Shown piece by piece: positions 4,294 to 58,430 of a DNA stretch of 64,000 nt (its first letter is position 1; the number at the start of each line of letters is the position of its first letter). The notes below the pieces were generated by a model, which saw only the letters and a list, made by a program, of their open reading frames with translations, did not search any database and was not told the origin of the DNA. The translations under genes were made by a program, and so were the position numbers. Source of the stretch: an uncultured Candidatus Saccharibacteria bacterium (GTDB lineage Bacteria; Patescibacteriota; Saccharimonadia; Saccharimonadales; Saccharimonadaceae); NCBI GenBank assembly GCA_946406665.1, contig CAMJLE010000002.1, positions 1,200-65,199 on the forward strand, read 5' to 3'.

Positions 4294-4369
4294 CGGGGCG
4301 TGGCGCAGTTGGTAGCGCGCGCGGTTCGGGACTGCGAGGTCGCCTGTTCGAGTCAGGTCGCCCCGACCA
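4294..4369 (+). tRNA. tRNA-Pro (anticodon CGG), CCA encoded
   Basis: CGGGGCG/CGCCCCG acceptor, anticodon loop TTCGGGA, T-loop TTCGAGT, 76 nt. Confidence 0.9.
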
Positions 4370-17721: not shown

Positions 17722-17788
17722 ACCGTAATTATATCGTTGGCGAAAAGACGAATGAAGCATAAGTATAAATATCTGTTATAATGATGTA

Positions 17789-19672
17789 GTGAAAAAGTTT
17801 TTGAAGAAGCTCAGCTTGAGGCAACGCTATCTTTTATGCTCAGCAGTTTTTCTTTTTGTGACCGCACTGTTACTCACCTGGTTCCTCGAATATCGTTATT
17901 TTTTAGGCAATATGTCGGGCACGTGGGAGTTTGTATTTGGTAGATTTCAGATTTATCTATTTAATACGTTCTTGATGTGGCTAATGCTCATTTTTATCTG
18001 GGGCATATTGGGCTCACCAATTGCCGCGACTGGCGTATCCTGGGTGTTAATTTCGATTTTGACATATATACATATCAATAAATATTACTCACGTCAGACG
18101 CCTCTTTTGCCAGAAGATTTTCAGCTAGCTAGCCAAGCTACGACTTTGACGAAATTCGTGGACTACGGCTCGATTACGCGATTAGTTATAGCCTGCCTGT
18201 TGATGATTTTTCTCACTGCACTTTTCTATAGGTTTTGGGCGAAAAAACTTCACCTAAAGAGAACTTGGAAGACTCATTCATTTGCACAGAAGCACGCTAT
18301 TGCTATGCGGTTATTAATCGTAGTAGTAGCAGGTGGCGCATTTTTCTTCTGTACCGATTTCATTCGCCATCACGACGGCTCCCGCTACGAAGACGTTCCA
18401 TTTCTGAACACTACTTTCACGGCCTGGAATCAAAATCGAAACTATACGGAAAATGGTTTTATCGTAGGATTCTTATACAATTTTCAGAAGCTTCAACTCG
18501 AGGAGCCTGATGTTTATTCCGAGAATAAGATTCGTTCCATCAAATCAAAATACGATGCTAAAGCCGATGAAGAGAATCTCAATCGTAAAGATTTAGCAAA
18601 GGACGATATTAATGTTGTAGTAATATTAAACGAGTCGTTCTTTGACCCGAACGTTGAGTTTAATGGCGAAAAATTCGAGGACTATTACCCACATACTGGG
18701 GGTGATATATTGCCAAACTTGCACGAGATTCAGAAGAACTATCCGAGTGGACTAATGTATTCGCTCGATTACGGCGGAGGTACAGCAAATATCGAATTCG
18801 AAACGCTCACGAGCATGACGAATTACTGGGTGAATACCGTCCCATACACTGCCTTAGTACCAAAAGCTGGGCAAATTCCTTCGATTGCACAAATGCTAAA
18901 AACAAAAGGCTACGCAACGACCGCAATTCACCCCTTCAATGGTGGCATGTACAAAAGAAATATCTCGCTTGCAAATGAGGGCTTCGATACTTTTATCACC
19001 GAGAATGAGATGGATTACAAGGACCACGATGGCAACTCTGAGTATATAAATGACCGCTCGGCGTATCGCCAGGTGCTAAAAGTACTAAAAGAGAGCGATC
19101 AGAAACAGATGATTGGACTGATTACGATGCAGAACCATACGCCATATAACGCTGAAAACTACGAGAAAACCCAATTCGCCGTGACAAACGACGACATTGA
19201 AGATCAAAGAAAGTCCGACATTGCGATATATTACCAAAGCTTGCATAATTCTGATCAGTATTTTGGCGAATTCATCGACGAAATTAATAAGTTAGACGAA
19301 AAAGTAGTTATACTATTCTTCGGCGATCATGCGGCTGGCCTGTTCGATAATGTCAATTCGCACGAGTCTAAGCAGGTACGCGATTTGGCGCGTGTCACGC
19401 CCTACTTTGTTTATTCGAACTACGATTCCGGTTTCCGAGGAAAGCAATCATTGCCAACCACTACGCCAAACTGCATGGTTAATACGATGCTGAATGGCCT
19501 AAACTGGCAAAAGGATTCATTATATTATATGGTAGATCAGGTTTGCGAGAATGAGCCAATACTAGCGGCTAGCTATATGGAGGGGCGCGAAGTGCGCATG
19601 GCGGACGTAATGGACGATTACGAACTCGTTACTTACGATATCTTAGGCGGCAAAAAGTATTGGACAAAATAA
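17789..19672 (+). CDS. LTA synthase/phosphoglycerol-transferase family sulfatase-fold membrane protein
   Basis: 627 aa with a GTG start. About 5 N-terminal TMs precede an extracellular sulfatase-like domain (VVVILNESFFDP..., FFGDHAAG). Confidence 0.65.
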   Translation: MKKFLKKLSLRQRYLLCSAVFLFVTALLLTWFLEYRYFLGNMSGTWEFVFGRFQIYLFNTFLMWLMLIFIWGILGSPIAATGVSWVLISILTYIHINKYYSRQTPLLPEDFQLASQATTLTKFVDYGSITRLVIACLLMIFLTALFYRFWAKKLHLKRTWKTHSFAQKHAIAMRLLIVVVAGGAFFFCTDFIRHHDGSRYEDVPFLNTTFTAWNQNRNYTENGFIVGFLYNFQKLQLEEPDVYSENKIRSIKSKYDAKADEENLNRKDLAKDDINVVVILNESFFDPNVEFNGEKFEDYYPHTGGDILPNLHEIQKNYPSGLMYSLDYGGGTANIEFETLTSMTNYWVNTVPYTALVPKAGQIPSIAQMLKTKGYATTAIHPFNGGMYKRNISLANEGFDTFITENEMDYKDHDGNSEYINDRSAYRQVLKVLKESDQKQMIGLITMQNHTPYNAENYEKTQFAVTNDDIEDQRKSDIAIYYQSLHNSDQYFGEFIDEINKLDEKVVILFFGDHAAGLFDNVNSHESKQVRDLARVTPYFVYSNYDSGFRGKQSLPTTTPNCMVNTMLNGLNWQKDSLYYMVDQVCENEPILAASYMEGREVRMADVMDDYELVTYDILGGKKYWTK

Positions 19673-43281: not shown

Positions 43282-44121
43282 TTATAATTCCAGAATTGGC
43301 ATTTCTTCCCTGTACCTCTTTTGCGCTTCTAAATCCAGGTCTGCCGTAAGCATACCTTCTTCGTTTCCTAGCGCTCGCAGGTTTTCGCCATCATACTTGA
43401 TGATTTTCGTGTCCGCACATAGCTTTTCGCCCGTTTGGTTAACTGCGCAAAAGTAGACTTGGTTTTCGATTGCTCTAGCTCGTGGCAGGACGTCCCAGGC
43501 TACGGCTCCAGTTGACTTGTTGAAGTGCGCTGGGAGAAAGATGATTTCGGCGCCGCCTTTGGCCAGCTCTCTAAAATACTCTGGGAATCTTAGGTCGAAA
43601 CATATGCCGACGCCAATTTTGATGCCATCTATTTCGAATAAGCCAATCGTTTGTCCCGGAATGGTATCGTCATTTTCGTCTAGCTTGAAGTCTGGCCTAT
43701 TAACTTTGTACAGATATTTTTTATCGTATCTGCCGATAATATTCCCCTCGCGATTAATCACGAAACTCGTATTCGTAGTTTTGCCTGGCACGTCACTTTC
43801 TAGAGCGACGCTTCCCAGGATGATATTTACATGGTTTTCTCGAGCGAAATCTTGGTACTTTGCTATTTCGTCTAGCCTCACCGCCCCGCCATAATAGTCT
43901 TTACCCCACGACAGGAATAATTCGGAAAGACATATGATATCGGGCGAGTCTTTGACGGCCTCGCTCAATCGGCCGAGGACTTTTTGTTCGTTCTCGTTTT
44001 TCGTGCCGTTGGATTCTGTTTGGATAAGACTTACTCTGACCATAGATTTGTGCTCTGATGGAATTATAGCATCGATTATCGGCGCGCCGAAAGCGTGGTG
44101 ACTACTTATTAACGCACTCAT
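43282..44121 (-). CDS. Carbon-nitrogen hydrolase (nitrilase superfamily)
   Basis: ICLSELF (Glu) and GICFDLRFPE (Cys) motifs. The start may instead be the ATG at 44043 (MVRVSLIQ). Confidence 0.75.
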   Translation of the reverse strand: MSALISSHHAFGAPIIDAIIPSEHKSMVRVSLIQTESNGTKNENEQKVLGRLSEAVKDSPDIICLSELFLSWGKDYYGGAVRLDEIAKYQDFARENHVNIILGSVALESDVPGKTTNTSFVINREGNIIGRYDKKYLYKVNRPDFKLDENDDTIPGQTIGLFEIDGIKIGVGICFDLRFPEYFRELAKGGAEIIFLPAHFNKSTGAVAWDVLPRARAIENQVYFCAVNQTGEKLCADTKIIKYDGENLRALGNEEGMLTADLDLEAQKRYREEMPILEL

Positions 44122-44252
44122 GCTTTATTAAAATCGTTTTTATTGGTTTGATTGATATGTGTTGGCTCGTTTCGTAACACATAAGGTTCGCCTCGCGGGG
44201 GCCTTATAGAACGATGTTCTAGGCGCCATCAAGACTCCCGAGAAAGGGAAAA

Positions 44253-44315
44253 ATGAGTATACAACTGCGCGTGTGGCGCGTGAGAGTTATGCTCACGTTG
44301 AAGTTTGCGAAGTAA
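44253..44315 (+). CDS. Cassette copy 4 small ORF, 20 aa (MSIQLRVWRVRVMLTLKFAK)
   Basis: SD GAGAAAGGG lies upstream. The peptide is a paralog of the sORFs at 47555, 47872 and 48176, with shared residues encoded by different codons. Confidence 0.45.
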   Translation: MSIQLRVWRVRVMLTLKFAK

Positions 44316-44384
44316 CGGAAGATCCGTCCTAAATTAGGACGGATCAACCAACACATCAATACGCTTCCTAGAGGCGTATTATAT
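44316..44384 (-). ncRNA. Predicted antisense sRNA of cassette copy 4
   Basis: Minus-strand TGATATAAT (complement of 44391-99), hairpin AATACGC/GCGTATT (44358-80) and hairpin GATCCGTCC/GGACGGATC (44321-45). The ends are approximate. Confidence 0.35.
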
Positions 44385-44396
44385 GGTTTTATTATA

Positions 44397-44921
44397 TCAT
44401 GGCGCTTTGACTGCCTTAGCGATGACGCTAACAATTTCTTGGCGGGACATTTTTTCGGGGTTGCGGAAACGCGCAAGCGGGATGTTGGCGGCTTTAAAAA
44501 TGCGCTCGACTTCCGCGTCGCGCTCGGCGCGAGATTTGCTGTCGTGCGAGGCATCGTCGAGCTCAATGGCACAGACTGGCTTGCCGGTTTCCTTGCTGAG
44601 CAAAACGTAGTCGACGGACTTGCCGTTAATGTGACGGAAGGCAGCGTTCCAATTCTGGCCTTTGACTTTGTGGTTTAGCAAGGCGGAAAGATGAACTTGT
44701 GGAATGATATACCATTTACCGCCGAGCATGTCGTTGAGTTGCTTGAAGAATTCGTTTTCGCGTTGCGTCATAATGTAGCTCTTGGCGAAATAACGGTAGG
44801 TAGATTTTTTGATTTCTTCTTCGTCGTCGGTTTGCTTTACGGCGAAGAGCTTGCGCGAAGCGAAGTCCGCTGCGACGAGAATGACTAGAGCGATGATGAT
44901 AATGATGTATGTTTTATCCAT
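44397..44921 (-). CDS. DUF2726 (restriction-endonuclease-like fold) protein with N-terminal TM
   Basis: YIIPQVHLSALL...SVDYVLL...VCAIELDDASHD...RDAEVERIF. Confidence 0.65.
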   Translation of the reverse strand: MDKTYIIIIIALVILVAADFASRKLFAVKQTDDEEEIKKSTYRYFAKSYIMTQRENEFFKQLNDMLGGKWYIIPQVHLSALLNHKVKGQNWNAAFRHINGKSVDYVLLSKETGKPVCAIELDDASHDSKSRAERDAEVERIFKAANIPLARFRNPEKMSRQEIVSVIAKAVKAP

Positions 44922-44938
44922 GATTCTATATTATCTCC

Positions 44939-46036
44939 TTATTTATCGCTTTTTCTACGATTGCAATCTCGGCAAAGCATTTGGCAGTTTTCAGCAACAG
45001 TTTTACCGCCTTGGCTCCATGGCGTAATATGGTCGGCTTCCATCTCGTCGATTTCGAAGTGTTGGTTGCATTCAGAGCAAATTCCCCGCTGGCGTTCGTA
45101 AGCCTCGCGCTTCATGTTGTCTGTAAATGCACGAATGCTTAAATGACGTTCGTCGCCACATAACAGGTATTCGTAGATGCCCTTCTTGGCAGTAACATCC
45201 TCGTCCTGCATGAGGCGGATGATTTCTTTTTCCATTTTCTGAGCATCGTAGGAATAATTATGGTATTTATTATAGAAGTCGCCCCATTCGAGGCCTTTCA
45301 TTTCTTTGCGATAATTCGGGAACAGCATTTGTGCCCATGCGATGACGGTCTGGAAATATTGCCAAAGTTCGGAGGCATTATCGTCGAACTGGTGCTTAGA
45401 CATATATTCTTCAATGTTGTCGTCGGAAATCCATTTCAAAGCAGATTGTAAATAGTCCTGGCGAATCGGCGAACCATTCATGTATTTTTCGGCTAGTCCA
45501 TAGGCGGCGCAGCCAGTTTTGCTAAAGTGGCGCTTAGCGTCAGTTAGCCATGGGCCGGCATAGACCGCGTTGCGAAGTTCCTGATCGGTAAGCTTTTCGC
45601 CGGCGATATTGATAGTCTTGAACCATTCGAGTTTTTCGCTGTCTGTACCGTCGCAAATGTAGATATATAAATCGTAGTTTTCAATTTGTGCACGTTCATC
45701 AGAAGTGAGGCTGTGAAAATATTTGTTGTTGATGGAGAAATCGCCCTGCACGTATTGGCAGAAAGAAATCGTACGCTGCTGGCCGTCGAGAATTTCGTAA
45801 CCAGTCACCTCCCCACTGTCATTTTTAACGACGGACCAATACATAACATTGAGCGGGAATTCTTTGCGAATAGTATCAATTACGGCATTTCGCTGAGCAT
45901 CTTTATATACGAATTCGCGTTGGAATTTTGGGCGGATGTCGAGCCTACCGCCGTAGCCAACAACGCCTTCTTCATTGCCGTCTTTATAGCCATCAAATAC
46001 ATCTTTGATTTTGATTTTTTGAAGCTCAATTTTCAT
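44939..46036 (-). CDS. DUF262 (ParB-like, DGQQR) + C-terminal HNH nuclease, GmrSD-related
   Basis: ILDGQQRTISF in the N-domain and CSECN...ADHITPWSQGG...NCQMLCRDCNRRKSDK in the HNH domain. Overlaps the methyltransferase stop by 11 nt. Confidence 0.8.
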   Translation of the reverse strand: MKIELQKIKIKDVFDGYKDGNEEGVVGYGGRLDIRPKFQREFVYKDAQRNAVIDTIRKEFPLNVMYWSVVKNDSGEVTGYEILDGQQRTISFCQYVQGDFSINNKYFHSLTSDERAQIENYDLYIYICDGTDSEKLEWFKTINIAGEKLTDQELRNAVYAGPWLTDAKRHFSKTGCAAYGLAEKYMNGSPIRQDYLQSALKWISDDNIEEYMSKHQFDDNASELWQYFQTVIAWAQMLFPNYRKEMKGLEWGDFYNKYHNYSYDAQKMEKEIIRLMQDEDVTAKKGIYEYLLCGDERHLSIRAFTDNMKREAYERQRGICSECNQHFEIDEMEADHITPWSQGGKTVAENCQMLCRDCNRRKSDK

Positions 46037-47093
46037 GGATTCTCCTTTTTATAAAAATACGCGAAAATACAACTACTGGAAGATTATTATCGTCCAATAG
46101 ATATACATTTTGTAATCGCCAAGTTTTATTGTATGCTTTATACTTTTTTATAGTTTCTTCAGGGGGTGGCGTGAAAAAAGAACAATCATTAAACACCCAA
46201 TTCGTGTCGCCGCTTCTTCCAATTATCTCAAACTGGTCAGGATCATAACTATTTATAAAGCTGTCTGGTACGCCCATGTAACCATAATAATCATCAGGAA
46301 TATCGGCTATCCTATCTATATTAATTGCATTAAAGTTACCGTATTTAGGATAATCACTCGGATTATAGTGTTTATAGAGTATTAGCCCTTCATGCCGCTT
46401 TTCAATATCTAGATTCGTAAACCATATGACGTTCCCGAATTTTTTCGTGGTTCCATCGGGGCGCATAAACTCTTTTATGTGGTTATATCCAAGCCAAACT
46501 TTATTATTAGCAATTAATGGAAATATTTCTTGATAATGGAGTTTATTAGAGTCGCCGATTGTTAAGAACTTCTTATCATATTCTATAAGTTGTAGGATAT
46601 AGTCTGGGAATAGGCTAAAGGGCGGGTTAGTAACGACAATATCAGCCTCTTTAAGATACTCGATTGATTCTTCACTTCTAAAGTCACCGTCGCCGTCAAG
46701 TATTGTAAGGTTATTATCATTGCTTTTAAGCAGAAGTTCGATATCCGAGAGATCTGTTGCTCCATCGCCATTTAGATCTGGGACTTCGGTTATTTCTATT
46801 TTGTAGGGTAATTTCTCGTCTTTATGGAATAACGGCAAATCATTAAATTCCGTATAGCTAACTGGCGATCCGGCATAGCACGTACAGATTAGCTTTTTTA
46901 AGCCAAGATGATTAAAATTCATAGCAAAATATTTGAAGAAATTACTCTCAAATGGATCGTCGCAATTGCAAAATACGGTTTTACCTCTGAAGTGTTCTTT
47001 ATAATGGCATAATTCGTTTTCTATGTCTCTTAGAAAGGTATAGTGCTCATCGTCTTTTGCTACTTTTGCCTTTCCTAGGCTAGTGTTGGCTAT
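46026..47093 (-). CDS. N6-adenine DNA methyltransferase, EcoRI-methylase-like family; apparent ATA start
   Basis: VVTNPPFSL motif IV. The frame is open upstream of the track's ATG (46922): (ATA)ANTSLGKAKVAKDDEHYTFLRDIENELCHYKEHFRGKTVFCNCDDPFESNFFKYFAMNFNHLGLKK matches my memory of the family N-terminus. AGGAGG lies 4 nt before ATA (complement of 47091-93) and an in-frame TAA lies at 47109-11. Confidence 0.7.
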   Translation of the reverse strand: MANTSLGKAKVAKDDEHYTFLRDIENELCHYKEHFRGKTVFCNCDDPFESNFFKYFAMNFNHLGLKKLICTCYAGSPVSYTEFNDLPLFHKDEKLPYKIEITEVPDLNGDGATDLSDIELLLKSNDNNLTILDGDGDFRSEESIEYLKEADIVVTNPPFSLFPDYILQLIEYDKKFLTIGDSNKLHYQEIFPLIANNKVWLGYNHIKEFMRPDGTTKKFGNVIWFTNLDIEKRHEGLILYKHYNPSDYPKYGNFNAINIDRIADIPDDYYGYMGVPDSFINSYDPDQFEIIGRSGDTNWVFNDCSFFTPPPEETIKKYKAYNKTWRLQNVYLLDDNNLPVVVFSRIFIKRRIHEN

Positions 47094-47124
47094 GGCGCCT
47101 CCTAACTCTTAGCGCCACAACTTC

Positions 47125-47349
47125 AAAAAGAAAATAAGACACCTTGCGATGTCTTGTTCAATATATGTTGCCGATTACATCATGAATCCGGGAACGTAAC
47201 ACCGCATGATGTCTTAAATCAATTTCTGCACTTAGACTGAAACAGCCTAACCGGAGCGATGAACCTTCCCGGATTTACGGGTTGTTTCAAAACACTGCCG
47301 CAAGTGCAGAATTGTAGCCTAAGTGCAAATTATTAAATTGATTTAAGAC
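47125..47349 (-). ncRNA. Structured ~225-nt leader/ncRNA upstream of the methyltransferase, with own promoter and terminator
   Basis: Minus-strand TGATATAAT (complement of 47356-64). A 15-bp helix (47211-25 with 47335-49) plus a 9-bp helix (47227-35 with 47319-27) enclose a multi-stem domain. The terminator is AAGACATC-GCAA-GGTGTCTT plus ATTTTCTTTTT (47125-55). The G-U pairs fit only the minus-strand RNA. Confidence 0.45.
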
Positions 47350-47554
47350 AATTTAATTATATCACTTAGGGACAGGGGTTGAGAAGTGTTCTGTTTGAAC
47401 TCATGCTTTTATGCCGTTCTGAGTTCTCCTATACTAAAAAGGCGCCGCAAGGTGTCTTAAATCAATGGTTTAAACTGACATTGAAGTTCATGAGAGCTCG
47501 CAGGGCTTCAATAAACAGGATTCTAGATAACTAGACACTCTGAGGAAGATTGTC

Positions 47555-47614
47555 ATGGTCATCACAGTTCGACTTTGGATTGTGGAATTCAGAATAAGAA
47601 TCAGGTTTGTTTAG
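47555..47614 (+). CDS. Cassette copy 1 small ORF, 19 aa (MVITVRLWIVEFRIRIRFV)
   Basis: SD GAGGAAG lies 6 nt upstream. There is codon-level conservation with copy 3. Confidence 0.5.
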   Translation: MVITVRLWIVEFRIRIRFV

Positions 47615-47618
47615 AGAT

Positions 47619-47688
47619 GAAAAATAACCCATAGGGGTTATCTTTCATCAAAACCATTTCGAGCGTAGTTTCTAGAGCTGCGCTCAAT
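47619..47688 (-). ncRNA. Predicted antisense sRNA of cassette copy 1
   Basis: Minus-strand TGCTATAAT (complement of 47695-703), hairpin GAGCGCAGCTCTAGAAACTACGCTC, and terminator ATAACCCC-TAT-GGGTTAT plus TTTTT. Confidence 0.4.
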
Positions 47689-47871
47689 AAGTATATTATA
47701 GCAAAAGCATTAAACTTACGCTTTTGCTTCTAGTTAATTAGGCATATTGTCTTTGAGGGTACGTGTTTTGCCCTATTGAATGTTTTAGCCATAAGCCATT
47801 GGAGGCCAGCTCGCTGGGGCTTCAATGAACGGTGATTCTAGATAGCTAGAGGTCCCGGAGAAAGTCTTTGC

Positions 47872-47952
47872 ATGAGCGTTCGGATTACCATCATGGGCGT
47901 AAGTGTGGAGTTTGGAATTCGGTTTCCGAAATTCAAAAAAATTCGTCGCTAA
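47872..47952 (+). CDS. Cassette copy 2 small ORF, 26 aa (MSVRITIMGVSVEFGIRFPKFKKIRR)
   Basis: SD GGAGAAAG lies upstream. The C-terminus IRF.K.KKIRR parallels copy 3 (IRLVRKPKKVSR). Confidence 0.5.
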   Translation: MSVRITIMGVSVEFGIRFPKFKKIRR

Positions 47953-48006
47953 ATAAATAACGACGAACCAAACACGTCGAGTGTAGTTTCTAGAACTGCG
48001 CTCGTT
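47934..48006 (-). ncRNA. Predicted antisense sRNA of cassette copy 2
   Basis: Minus-strand TGATATAAT (complement of 48013-21), hairpin GAGCGCAGTTCTAGAAACTACACTC, and terminator TTCGTCG..CGACGAA plus TTTTTTT, which overlaps the last sORF codons. Confidence 0.4.
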
Positions 48007-48175
48007 GAATATATTATATCAAATAATTGAACTCATGCTTTTATGAGTGAAATCTAAACATTAATATGTGAACGGGTTATTTTGGCATCGCGTGAGGCTC
48101 GGAGAGAACTCTCGCTCGCAGGAGCCTCACTGAACGGTGATTCTAGATAGCTAGACGCTCCTGAGAAAGATTCAG

Positions 48176-48259
48176 ATGTCACTCACTTTCAGGATTTGGA
48201 TTGTGGAGTTGAGGTCCGAAATTCGCTTGGTGCGGAAGCCAAAAAAAGTTAGCCGCTAG
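48176..48259 (+). CDS. Cassette copy 3 small ORF, 27 aa (MSLTFRIWIVELRSEIRLVRKPKKVSR)
   Basis: GAGAAAG lies 6 nt upstream. The stop codon sits inside the terminator hairpin of the antisense RNA. Confidence 0.5.
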   Translation: MSLTFRIWIVELRSEIRLVRKPKKVSR

Positions 48260-48307
48260 CGGCTAACCAAACCCAAACAGAGCGTAGTTTCTAGAGCTGC
48301 GCTCGTT
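48241..48307 (-). ncRNA. Predicted antisense sRNA of cassette copy 3
   Basis: Minus-strand TGATATAAT (complement of 48314-22, abutting the permease stop codon), hairpin GAGCGCAGCTCTAGAAACTACGCTC, and terminator GTTAGCCGCTAGCGGCTAAC plus TTTTTTT. Confidence 0.4.
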
Positions 48308-48324
48308 GGATATATTATATCACG

Positions 48325-49104
48325 CTACTCGACATTCACGCCTTTACTAAACAGTTTCTTACCACCGAAGTACAAGCCGGTTGTCAGCACGAGATACAAT
48401 GCATCAGTTACGGCAATGAGCGTGCGGTAGGTCGAGAAGCCGATTGCAACATCCATCGCGTCGCCAAACATGGCTTTGACACTATCGTCAAAAATGCCAA
48501 TTCCGTAAATGATGCCGAGCAGCAAGCTCTGCAGAGTGAAATATAACACTATGCCAAGAACCGCCGAACGAATCATGCGGCCATTATTTGCGCGATGACC
48601 AACGGTAAGGCTAAACATGCCAACATTCACGGCGTAAACTACTTCCAAGACAGCCGTAACGAGAATCCCGAGAACAATAAATGTCATATCGCCATCTTTG
48701 AAGACCGAGCGAAAATACTCATACATATCATTGTTCCAAAATGCAATAAAGAAACAAGTAATCACGACGGCGAGAGATAATAAAATGGCACAGAGTCCAG
48801 AAAGAACTTTGCTATCGTAGAGCGTATTTTTGCTTACTGGTAGCGTATGCGTCAAATATGCTTCGTCTTTATAGAAACTTTGGCGGAAACGTTCCCATAT
48901 TCGAATTGCCGAATTAATGACAGCATTAGCGAAAGCTGCAATCGTAAAACCACGCAAAATGCCAAAGACGAGATCACCAATTACGGAGCCCGTAAAGTTG
49001 CTGGAAATGCGAGTGAGGATAGATAGAATAGCCGTAATAGCAAAAATTACAACCATGTTACGATTCATCCACAGGAAGTCGTATTTAATTAGCTTTTTTA
49101 GCAT
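48325..49104 (-). CDS. ABC transporter permease-like membrane protein
   Basis: About 6 TMs. Start taken at MLKKLIKYDF (ATG 49104), overlapping the ATPase gene's end by 20 nt. Confidence 0.6.
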   Translation of the reverse strand: MLKKLIKYDFLWMNRNMVVIFAITAILSILTRISSNFTGSVIGDLVFGILRGFTIAAFANAVINSAIRIWERFRQSFYKDEAYLTHTLPVSKNTLYDSKVLSGLCAILLSLAVVITCFFIAFWNNDMYEYFRSVFKDGDMTFIVLGILVTAVLEVVYAVNVGMFSLTVGHRANNGRMIRSAVLGIVLYFTLQSLLLGIIYGIGIFDDSVKAMFGDAMDVAIGFSTYRTLIAVTDALYLVLTTGLYFGGKKLFSKGVNVE

Positions 49105-57452: not shown

Positions 57453-58403
57453 CTAAGAATTCATGAGGATGATACCGACGGATATGATTATCGCAGCAAC
57501 GACGTAGTACAAGATTATTTTCTTCGTCATTCGCTTTGCCGTAATAAACTTCGGAAAAGCGCGACCAAGGAACAACACGATAAAGAACGACACGAAAAGA
57601 TTAGACACACGAGCGATTGGCGCCAACAAAGAAACCACCGGCGCAACAATAAGTGCAAATTTATAAAGAATCTCGCCACCGAGCAAGGTAAAATTATCTG
57701 CAAGTTCGGCAAATAGGTAAAAGTGCCGGCGGCGGCTAGTAATGAAGGTACGCTTTAGCGCCTTGCGCCACGATTCAAAGAAGATGAAACACATAATTAC
57801 GGTAATCAGCGAACCGAGCTGGAAGAAGAAAAAACCTTGCGCAAAAAGCGTATAGTCTGCGATGCGATTACCAATAAACAACGCGTAGACGATGTCTGAG
57901 AGAATCGAGAAGAAACAATACACGATTGTCGTCAATGCTACGTCGACATTCGGGCTATGTTTTTCGCGCTTGCCGCTCGTGCCGAAAATCACAATTAACG
58001 TGGCTGCCATTATCATAACGAAGCCTAAGCTTTGGTTAGAATTAATCGTCTCGCCAAGCAGAAGTACGCCGAGCCCTATAGAGATAAGCGGAGCGACTTG
58101 GCCGAAAATCGTGACATCTATATTGTCGCCTTTCTGAATGGCTTTGTAATAGAAAATGGCCCCGGTAACATTAATAGCACCAGCCATCATTAGCCCGAGT
58201 GCGTTGCCGAGTGGCATCATAAAAACAGCGCGGCCAAAAATAAAGATTAATGCGATTATGGAAACCAAAAAACTCAGCGCATGCATAATAGCCAAAGAGC
58301 CTGCACGCTTTTTTGGCAAAGCAACGTCAGTAAGGTAATTTTGGATGTAGCCGTTGAAGCAGTAAAAAACAGATGCAGCAACGGGAAGAACTAGCCACCA
58401 CAT
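57453..58403 (-). CDS. EamA/DMT superfamily transporter
   Basis: 316 aa, about 10 TMs. Confidence 0.65.
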   Translation of the reverse strand: MWWLVLPVAASVFYCFNGYIQNYLTDVALPKKRAGSLAIMHALSFLVSIIALIFIFGRAVFMMPLGNALGLMMAGAINVTGAIFYYKAIQKGDNIDVTIFGQVAPLISIGLGVLLLGETINSNQSLGFVMIMAATLIVIFGTSGKREKHSPNVDVALTTIVYCFFSILSDIVYALFIGNRIADYTLFAQGFFFFQLGSLITVIMCFIFFESWRKALKRTFITSRRRHFYLFAELADNFTLLGGEILYKFALIVAPVVSLLAPIARVSNLFVSFFIVLFLGRAFPKFITAKRMTKKIILYYVVAAIIISVGIILMNS

Positions 58404-58430
58404 ATTATTATTATAACATAATAATAATGC

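Follow-up and report, generated by a model that had tools for sequence, protein, structure and literature searches.

A 64-kb window of contig CAMJLE010000002.1, from the genome of an uncultured gut or rumen Candidatus Saccharibacteria bacterium, carries an array of three head-to-tail cassettes of ~300 nt each (47395-48322; the window is the whole stretch of DNA analyzed, and positions are counted from its first letter). Each cassette is a convergent two-gene module: a plus-strand gene for a structured messenger RNA (mRNA) with a short open reading frame (sORF), and a minus-strand gene for a predicted small RNA (sRNA) antisense to the 3' end of that mRNA. We have very little doubt that this two-gene anatomy is real, and we think it rather probable, by analogy with characterized loci, that the module works as a toxin–antitoxin (TA)-like locus of the type I, 3'-overlap kind. 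The original prediction for this DNA had proposed convergent pairs of this sort and an overall type I TA-like architecture; both are supported here, and the five elements it listed for each unit are all present where it had placed them.

A repeat search returned the direct-repeat units as three-copy families, and the units, aligned with MAFFT, are identical in 72% of columns. Block A (GATTCTAGATARCTAGA) and block B (GTAGTTTCTAGARCTGCGCTC), two sequence blocks of the cassette, occur exactly three times each in the 64 kb, against 0.18 and 0.00 occurrences expected by chance.

About 40 related cassettes were recovered from 18 other contigs. A scan of a genome collection for block B returned seven loci, six of them in Saccharibacteria metagenome-assembled genomes (MAGs; the sources include sheep rumen and horse feces, and one genome is named Nanosyncoccaceae). 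The seventh, in Caulobacteraceae, is a chance match in which the other cassette elements are absent. A metagenome scan added 13 loci; its pattern comprised leader elements only, so that sORF and sRNA could be judged without bias. All named sources are Saccharibacteria MAGs, some from rumen or horse feces, and the arrays vary among genomes in copy number and order, with up to about five cassettes.

The sORF and the antisense sRNA gene

The substitution pattern indicates that the sORF is a genuine coding gene under selection at the level of the peptide. Among the complete units found by the leader-only pattern, 24 of 25 keep the frame intact behind the Shine–Dalgarno sequence (SD), the exception being a 1-nt deletion at the start in locus L013. 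Pairwise differences among 19 distinct core coding sequences number 1097/457/1463 at codon positions 1/2/3, in the order 3 > 1 > 2. The pooled ratio of nonsynonymous to synonymous differences (pN/pS) is 0.36 in frame versus 1.58 in frame +2, and frame +1 contains stops in 19 of 19 sequences. The original prediction had argued for peptide selection from codon differences between copies 1 and 3, which read as it quoted them, and had suggested a coding-rate comparison across homologs as a check; frame retention, codon periodicity, and the in-frame pN/pS all point the same way. Alternative TTG ORFs in other frames and minus-strand ORFs were rejected as not conserved, and a TTG ORF overlapping the unit 2 sORF is likewise not conserved.

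The three array sORFs, each closed by a stop codon, encode the peptides originally reported: MVITVRLWIVEFRIRIRFV in unit 1 (47555-47614, plus strand; 19 aa, type b), MSVRITIMGVSVEFGIRFPKFKKIRR in unit 2 (47872-47952, plus strand; 26 aa, type c), and MSLTFRIWIVELRSEIRLV-RKPKKVSR in unit 3 (48176-48259, plus strand; 27 aa, type d, a 19-aa core with a variable basic tail). The unit 1 frame is kept in homologs; the type c frame is conserved in four homologs, with mostly synonymous substitutions (four sequences, read by eye). The SD, GAGGAAG or GAGAAAG, lies 5–8 nt ahead of the ATG, at 47542-47548 (GAGGAAG), 47858-64, and 48163-69 in units 1 to 3.

Across the family the sORFs encode 19–28 aa and fall into five peptide types, a–e, built on a 19-residue core, M-x-[IL]-T-[IVF]-[RK]-[IVL]-W-x-V-E-[FL]-x3-I-R-x-V, in which M1, W8, and V10 are invariant. 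Types a and b stop at this core, and types c, d, and e add K/R-rich C-terminal tails. In the longer types the tail is encoded across an A-run and the terminator hairpin, and A-run indels give it different ends; type d homologs end in RKPKKVSR, RKPNKKS, RKPKK, or RKPKNS. Such variation suggests that the basic tail is weakly constrained and that the conserved unit is the 19 residues, a revision of the 27-aa peptide first described. The peptides are cationic (net charge mostly +2 to +9; 0 for L018) and rich in beta-branched residues, and their hydrophobic moment is greater at beta than at alpha periodicity.

On the minus strand, all 26 units examined have a TGnTA(T/C)AAT promoter (twice TGATACAAT), a 5' hairpin, a linker of 10–14 nt, and a terminator formed by a strong hairpin followed by 4–7 U, the U-run being present on the minus strand only; the predicted sRNAs are 65–75 nt long. 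The 9-nt loop of the 5' hairpin, CUCUAGAAA, is almost invariant, and six of the eight stem pairs show compensatory changes (33 cells), a score that 0/500 shuffles reach. Terminator stems wholly different between cassette types are still complementary (by eye). With an sRNA covariance model, 39 copies are found in 20 sources.

Within the array, the sRNA promoters lie on the minus strand at 47695-47703 (TGCTATAAT), 48013-48021, and 48314-48322 (both TGATATAAT), each followed by hairpin and terminator as originally described. The predicted RNAs measure 68–73 nt: ~70 nt in unit 1 (47616-47688, with 5' hairpin, linker, and terminator; 75.6 bits under the covariance model), ~73 nt in unit 2 (47934-48006; 55.2 bits; its terminator overlaps the sORF stop), and ~68 nt in unit 3 (48241-48307; 81.5 bits). 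Each predicted sRNA is fully complementary to the 3' untranslated region (3'UTR) of its mRNA and, in the long types, also to the last sORF codons. The minus-strand sRNA gene thus appears, in gene anatomy, to be a conserved counterpart of the antisense RNA that marks the type I TA class.

The promoter motif is widespread: TGnTATAAT occurs 20 times in the window versus 3.0 expected, for the most part immediately 5' of genes and tRNAs, and on this distribution it is clearly the usual promoter type of the genome studied. As a separate observation, several genes, including the array-adjacent ruvB, begin 6–8 nt after such a box (L005 6632-6650, L010, L013-L015, L018, and L019; window 17774-17791 and 58403-58418), and their mRNAs would accordingly be leaderless. 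The promoters of ruvB and of the last sRNA stand back to back within ~25 bp.

Folding of the plus-strand RNA and its long-range contacts

In most cassettes a TAnnnT hexamer is preceded, at a constant distance of ~34 nt, by a conserved box (ACTYATGCTTTT) and followed ~7 nt later by the first structured element. Because the box is found before first or solitary cassettes and is missing after the last one, it belongs to the predicted plus-strand promoter and not to the neighboring sRNA promoter. Array copies of the box are at 47396-47410 and 48028-48042 (TGAACTCATGCTTTT, units 1 and 3) and 47711-47725 (TAAACTTACGCTTTT, unit 2), all on the plus strand. The −10-like hexamer of the predicted mRNA promoter is TATACT at 47430-47435 in unit 1 (TATATT or TATAGT at the same offset in homologs) and TAATAT at 48062-67 in unit 3. 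With a nonconsensus −10 versus a consensus one, the mRNA promoter looks weaker than that of the sRNA. The predicted structured mRNAs span 47442-47685, 47757-48003, and 48074-48304 on the plus strand; for the first, which comprises leader, sORF, and 3'UTR through hairpin B, we infer both ends.

The structures belong to the plus-strand RNA, as originally proposed. RNAalifold consensus energies for plus versus minus strand are −58.8 versus −27.7 kcal/mol for type b (73 pairs, 13 compensatory) and −50.2 versus −34.3 kcal/mol for type d (52 pairs, 8 compensatory). The single-sequence minimum free energy (MFE) is −87.8 kcal/mol for unit 1 (z = −6.2; complement −63.2, z = −3.1) and −92.0 kcal/mol for unit 3 (z = −4.7; complement −77.6, z = −3.6). 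Many invariant G·U pairs in the plus-strand folds would be A·C on the other strand. A minus-strand structured RNA or riboswitch was rejected as a reading of the locus because the plus strand folds better and holds these invariant pairs.

Local elements include stem-loop P1 and a hairpin inside the ORF. P1 occupies 47480-47512 in unit 1 (ATTGAAG/CTTCAAT at 47480-86/47506-12; conserved loop GCTCGCAGG), with stems at 47797-804/47820-27 and 48092-100/48122-30 in units 2 and 3; a G-T pair in unit 2 is a wobble pair in plus-strand RNA only. P1 is kept in homologs, and some of its pairs covary (CG:7/UA:2 and AU:5/GU:5 in the type b fold; GC:8/AU:2/GU:1 in the type d fold). The enclosed loop motif, GCUCGC(A/U)GG, is nearly invariant while the stem changes (47496-47504, 47809-47817, 48114-48122; 44191-44199, where it reads CCUCGCGGG, in a fourth copy described below). 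No covarying partner was found for this motif, and protein binding or a tertiary contact are possibilities; pairing of the motif (GCUCGCAGG) with the hairpin-B stem found no support, the loop being invariant while the B stem changes (by eye). In the ORF-internal hairpin, synonymous changes on the two sides (ACA/ATT to ACT/ATA) match each other and preserve the stem. The type-b consensus fold pairs the SD region, that of unit 1 included, with the 3' end of the ORF and its last codons; SD sequestration was rejected as a universal feature, being present in the type-b consensus and weakly conserved in type d.

Two long-range contacts would clamp the leader to its own 3'UTR and, in our structural model, together form a pseudoknot. 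The first, helix P0, joins a segment near the mRNA 5' end to a segment between the terminator-complement hairpin and hairpin B. Its sequences differ by type and are complementary throughout: AUGGUUUGG/CCAAACCAU, CGGGUUGA/UCAACCCG, GUGUUUUG/CAAAACAC, and AUGUGUUGG/CCAACACAU. Cognate segments pair better than cross-type segments in 30 of 31 units, and 0/2000 permutations reach the observed mean. The MFE folds of the array units contain P0 as well: in unit 1 its 5' strand (AATGGTTT, 47464-47471) pairs with 47651-47658, in unit 2 it joins 47761-68 to 47970-77, and in unit 3 it consists of 48073-78/48270-74 plus 48080-86/48238-44.

The second contact, A:B, joins the 5' hexamer of block A to the hexamer of block B. 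Read along the plus strand, each is the exact reverse complement of the other in 31 of 31 cassettes, and the pair takes four states: TCTAGA/TCTAGA, CCTAGA/TCTAGG, ACTAGG/CCTAGT, and TCTAGG/CCTAGA. Being reverse-complementary on one strand, they are inverted repeats that would pair within the plus-strand RNA. The flanking pairs change in step (5-34 UA:13, CG:3, AU:1; 10-29 AU:14, GC:3), with no unpaired cells and a score that 0/500 shuffles reach. Array copies of block A, which the original prediction had reported together with the SD, lie at 47521-47535 (TTCTAGATAACTAGA, in which the 5' hexamer, TCTAGA, is the partner of the hairpin-B loop), 47836-50, and 48141-55; hairpin B of unit 3 is at 48280-304. 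The fourth copy has the A hexamer and no second CTAG arm; conservation is accordingly stronger for A:B pairing than for the hairpin local to block A.

Because the sRNA is complementary to B, it displays in its loop the sequence of A. On this evidence leader and sRNA would be alternative partners of the same two 3'UTR elements, in competition for the 3'UTR. A simple refolding switch was tried and rejected: with the 3'UTR masked as if bound by sRNA, SD accessibility recomputed in 26 units changed in no consistent direction, and we accordingly claim no mechanism of translation control.

Cassette decay, the fourth copy, and neighboring elements

Cassettes decay asymmetrically. Of ~40 sRNA genes, 30 lie in intact cassettes and one faces a frameshifted sORF. 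Eight are orphans, with leader and/or sORF deleted or replaced by an insertion and with sRNA promoter, hairpin, and terminator kept. No intact sORF without an sRNA gene was found among the ~40 cassettes examined. This asymmetry is what a toxin/antidote pair predicts, and it also fits an important stand-alone sRNA.

Other rearrangements are seen among the relatives. A type-b cassette in L007 (reverse complement, 930-1115) has its sORF (MAITIRLWIVEFRIRIRFV) and sRNA gene intact but has cleanly lost the whole leader, from the P0 5' strand through P1 and block A to the SD, which makes it a natural "leaderless" variant. An insertion of ~230 bp has replaced the 5' half of one cassette in L006 (~2730-2960), L007 (reverse complement, ~560-790), and L016; it contains a promoter-like site (TTGACA...TAGTATAGT) and a hairpin with a T-run behind it (GGGACGGGCCC...GGCTGTCCTATTTTTT), and is a candidate for a further small RNA gene or a miniature mobile element.

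A combined regular-expression and fold screen located a fourth, solitary, and divergent cassette in the window at 44105-44400, with parts in the same order as in the array units. On the plus strand it has a promoter-region box (44114-26), P0 (44157-65/44348-56), P1 (44181-86/44202-07), A as TTCTAGG (44217-23), an SD (44240-48), a hairpin (44321-45), and hairpin B (44359-79); its hexamers, TCTAGG/CCTAGA, are complementary. The sORF (MSIQLRVWRVRVMLTLKFAK and a stop, 44253-44315; 20 aa, e-like) aligns with the peptide family. On the minus strand (44318-44399), a TGATATAAT promoter (44391-99) precedes a predicted antisense sRNA at about 44318-44384, with a weak U-run and a weak covariance-model score of 9.4 bits. 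A covariance-model search of the window with filters off gave three strong array copies, this weak copy at 44.3 kb, and nothing further.

Between the fourth cassette and the array lie genes for a DUF2726 protein, a GmrSD_N+HNH endonuclease, and an EcoRI-type adenine methylase, and a separate structured RNA. The defense-type genes occupy 44397-46922, and GC content falls to 0.38 in the 46-48 kb region. These genes look like an islet inserted into a larger ancestral cassette array. Elsewhere, an ABC transporter operon neighbors the arrays in some genomes and ruvB does so in many loci.

The separate RNA, a rod-like structure of ~225 nt on the minus strand (47125-47352), has a TGATATAAT promoter of its own (47356-64) and a terminator (47155-47136). 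Its MFE is −74.1 kcal/mol (z = −5.6), it has no Rfam match, and it is 85–88% conserved beside cassette arrays in L008, L013, L015, and L019. It has a 14-nt string, TGTCTTAAATCAAT, in common with the type-b leader. The modeled fold, long closing stems around internal bubbles, resembles 6S RNA, a likeness that is unproven. A further RNA element is the left array neighbor in L002 (reverse complement, 2500-2720), L005, L006, L007, and L020: a minus-strand leader of ~200 nt, closed by a 14-bp stem (GGAACTTACAATTT/AAATTGTAGGTTCC), that precedes a protein gene (MSSLIELLPKVV...). Rfam has no match to this leader, which could be a structured 5'UTR or a riboswitch candidate. Far from the array, ARAGORN calls a tRNA-Pro(CGG) at 4294-4369 that the Rfam tRNA model does not call at its gathering threshold.

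Proposed function, alternatives, and known systems

As read from its sequence, the module has the anatomical features of type I TA loci: a small ORF under coding selection, an antisense sRNA, tandem paralogs duplicated within an intergenic region, and, in some types, a charged or polar C-terminal cluster. It appears to match no described family. Rfam searches of the window and eight loci at gathering and permissive thresholds brought only tRNAs to the gathering threshold, and at E up to 10 they gave nothing credible in 46900-48400 and no family for any cassette part. The peptides have no match in Pfam, NCBIfam, PADLOC, or PDB sequences at E up to 10, save one chance WD40_alt match below the cutoff. 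The absence of any known RNA or protein family, which the original prediction had put forward, therefore holds across these searches. A literature search found no description of type I TA systems, small RNAs, or small proteins in Saccharibacteria.

We propose the following mechanism. The plus strand would give a highly folded mRNA of ~235–255 nt from the weak-looking promoter (box plus TAnnnT). The mRNA would encode the 19-residue cationic, beta-amphipathic core peptide, presumed harmful, to which some types would add the loose K/R-rich tail. From its consensus extended −10 promoter, the minus strand would give a 65–75-nt sRNA carrying the same two sequence patches as the leader. Binding would probably begin at the CUAG loops, because CUAG conforms to YUNR whichever strand is read; each kissing loop could present a U-turn. 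The sRNA would then displace the leader from the 3'UTR, breaking the clamp of P0 and A:B, and a ~70-bp duplex would form. This duplex could lead to RNase III-type decay and/or a translationally inert mRNA, keeping the peptide off. By analogy with txpA/RatA, bsrG/SR4, and bsrE/SR5, we infer that the sRNA represses the peptide. A bolder formulation makes the cassettes the first type I TA family in Saccharibacteria or the candidate phyla radiation (CPR) with a cationic, beta-amphipathic (hairpin-like) 19-residue toxin instead of a transmembrane helix, and with a leader-mimicking sRNA that evicts the leader from a pseudoknotted 5'–3' clamp; taken whole, it is a tentative proposal that we consider doubtful.

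Several observations weigh against a type I TA function. The peptides do not look like hydrophobic transmembrane toxins: under the transmembrane proxy that Fozo et al. 2010 apply (PMC2887945), in which IVLFCMA make up at least 10 of 15 residues, only 1 of 15 peptide variants (L018) qualifies, the others having 8–9 such residues, and the original description of an atypical peptide was apt for these cationic, beta-amphipathic sequences. The covariation counts come from related sequences and so include inherited changes. Folding with the 3'UTR masked, which considers nested structures, revealed no consistent change in SD accessibility to go with sRNA binding. No intrinsic terminator is evident for the plus-strand mRNA, and its 3' end is therefore placed from the covarying helices alone. 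The family is narrow, so far confined to Saccharibacteria. Finally, the orphan sRNA genes fit equally well a model with the sRNA as the important product.

The best-placed alternative is that the sORF encodes an antisense-controlled small protein that is no toxin—one that binds RNA or the ribosome, has a role in the envelope, or acts on the epibiont's host bacterium—with the sRNA tuning its expression. An Arg-rich, beta-amphipathic peptide without a transmembrane helix would suit such a role, purifying selection across five paralogous types suggests a function kept for the cell and not merely a selfish one, and an ABC transporter operon adjoins arrays in some genomes. That neighborhood is not conserved, however, ruvB adjoining the array in many loci, and the peptide has no signal peptide. 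Repeated loss of the sORF with the sRNA gene kept, together with heavy multilayer silencing, is more typical of toxic products. We consider a nontoxin protein unlikely, if worth keeping in view.

Quite improbable, in our estimate, is a locus whose main product is a trans-acting regulatory sRNA, with the plus-strand RNA and its sORF a secondary sponge, decoy, or decaying partner. The eight orphan sRNA genes with intact promoters and no sORF, and the almost invariant loop, would fit such a regulator. Codon-level purifying selection on the sORF and the extensive covarying structure of the plus-strand RNA itself argue against it, as does the sRNA linker, which varies together with its cis target as in a cis-antisense RNA.

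The original prediction favored a par/Fst-type arrangement, in which the sRNA loop pairs with the leader near the SD, as an equivalent of DRa/DRb, in addition to the 3' overlap. The genes are indeed convergent and overlap at the terminator, and the window does show 7 nt of complementarity between the loop (UCUAGAA) and the leader (UUCUAGA), with 3 more by the original alignment. This much of the claim stands; the contact it was taken to represent does not survive comparison. In the states CCTAGA/TCTAGG and ACTAGG/CCTAGT, pairing of the sRNA loop with the leader would be limited to 4 bp while same-strand A:B pairing stays perfect, so a par-like second patch is not what evolution preserves, and covariation across 31 of 31 cassettes runs counter to it. 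The match in the window, as in the majority state, would be a consequence of the palindrome TCTAGA. Since the peptides also match no Fst-family or other type I toxin model, we give a par/Fst mechanism very little credence.

Least credible of all are nonfunctional repeats or mobile-element remnants with fortuitous ORFs and hairpins: defense-type genes interrupt the array, cassette content varies among genomes, and some loci carry insertions, but codon periodicity, conserved promoters and terminators, and multiple covarying helices—signatures of selection—already contradict such a reading, and no match came from viral contigs in two pattern scans or from phage and plasmid collections by blastn.

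If the cassette is the type I TA-like module that we favor, it would extend this form of regulation to the CPR, to very small genomes, and to an epibiotic lifestyle. Searches that require a transmembrane helix would miss families of this kind. The cassettes also offer a compact RNA model—a 5'–3' clamp with two covarying contacts, mimicked by an antisense RNA—and supply covariance models for annotating Saccharibacteria genomes, and the peptide is short enough to synthesize.

Among known systems, ibs/sib, ldr/rdl, and zor/orz share with the cassettes the presence of several paralogous toxin/sRNA pairs in one intergenic region, with similarity extending beyond the ORF, and IbsC is likewise 19 aa long. 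Their toxins, however, are strongly hydrophobic, their sRNAs overlap the ORF or 5' region, and they have no sequence relationship to the cassettes. Similarity beyond the ORF among tandem paralogs was used by Fozo et al. 2010 to find type I loci (PMC2887945). The par locus of Enterococcus faecalis pAD1 (Fst, RNA I-RNA II) resembles the cassettes in its convergent RNAs meeting at a terminator hairpin, its small ORF, and its short antisense RNA (~65 nt). On sequence comparison the cassette lacks both defining features of par/Fst: in place of the direct repeats DRa/DRb, which pair between the RNAs near the start codon, it has A/B motifs that are inverted and would pair in cis, and its peptide has no Fst homology. 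Its terminator U-run, moreover, is on the minus strand only.

Long-range pairing of the 5' end with the 3' region, as in P0, recalls hok/sok and aapA/isoA, as does a partly sequestered SD. Such 5'–3' pairing keeps full-length hok and aapA1 mRNAs inert. Their antisense RNAs bind the 5' part of the mRNA, whereas the cassette sRNA would bind the 3' partner of the clamp; the cassettes add the second, pseudoknotted contact A:B, and the peptides are unrelated.

In arrangement, the cassettes resemble txpA/RatA, bsrG/SR4, and bsrE/SR5: toxin mRNA and antitoxin sRNA are convergent with overlapping 3' ends, the antitoxin has a strong promoter, and the K/R-rich tails of types c, d, and e recall the charged tails of those toxins. 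The overlap is ~70 nt in the cassettes versus 114–123 nt in those systems, the cassette peptide (19–28 aa, without a transmembrane helix) has no sequence or profile similarity to their toxins, and the host is a CPR bacterium. We know of no leader–3'UTR clamp with two covarying contacts mimicked by the sRNA in any of the three. Their modes of action parallel the route proposed here: initial contact through YUNR loops has been described for these systems, and their 3'-overlap antitoxins RatA, SR4, and SR5 act through RNase III, SR4 also refolding the ribosome-binding-site region from a distance (PMC8464778).

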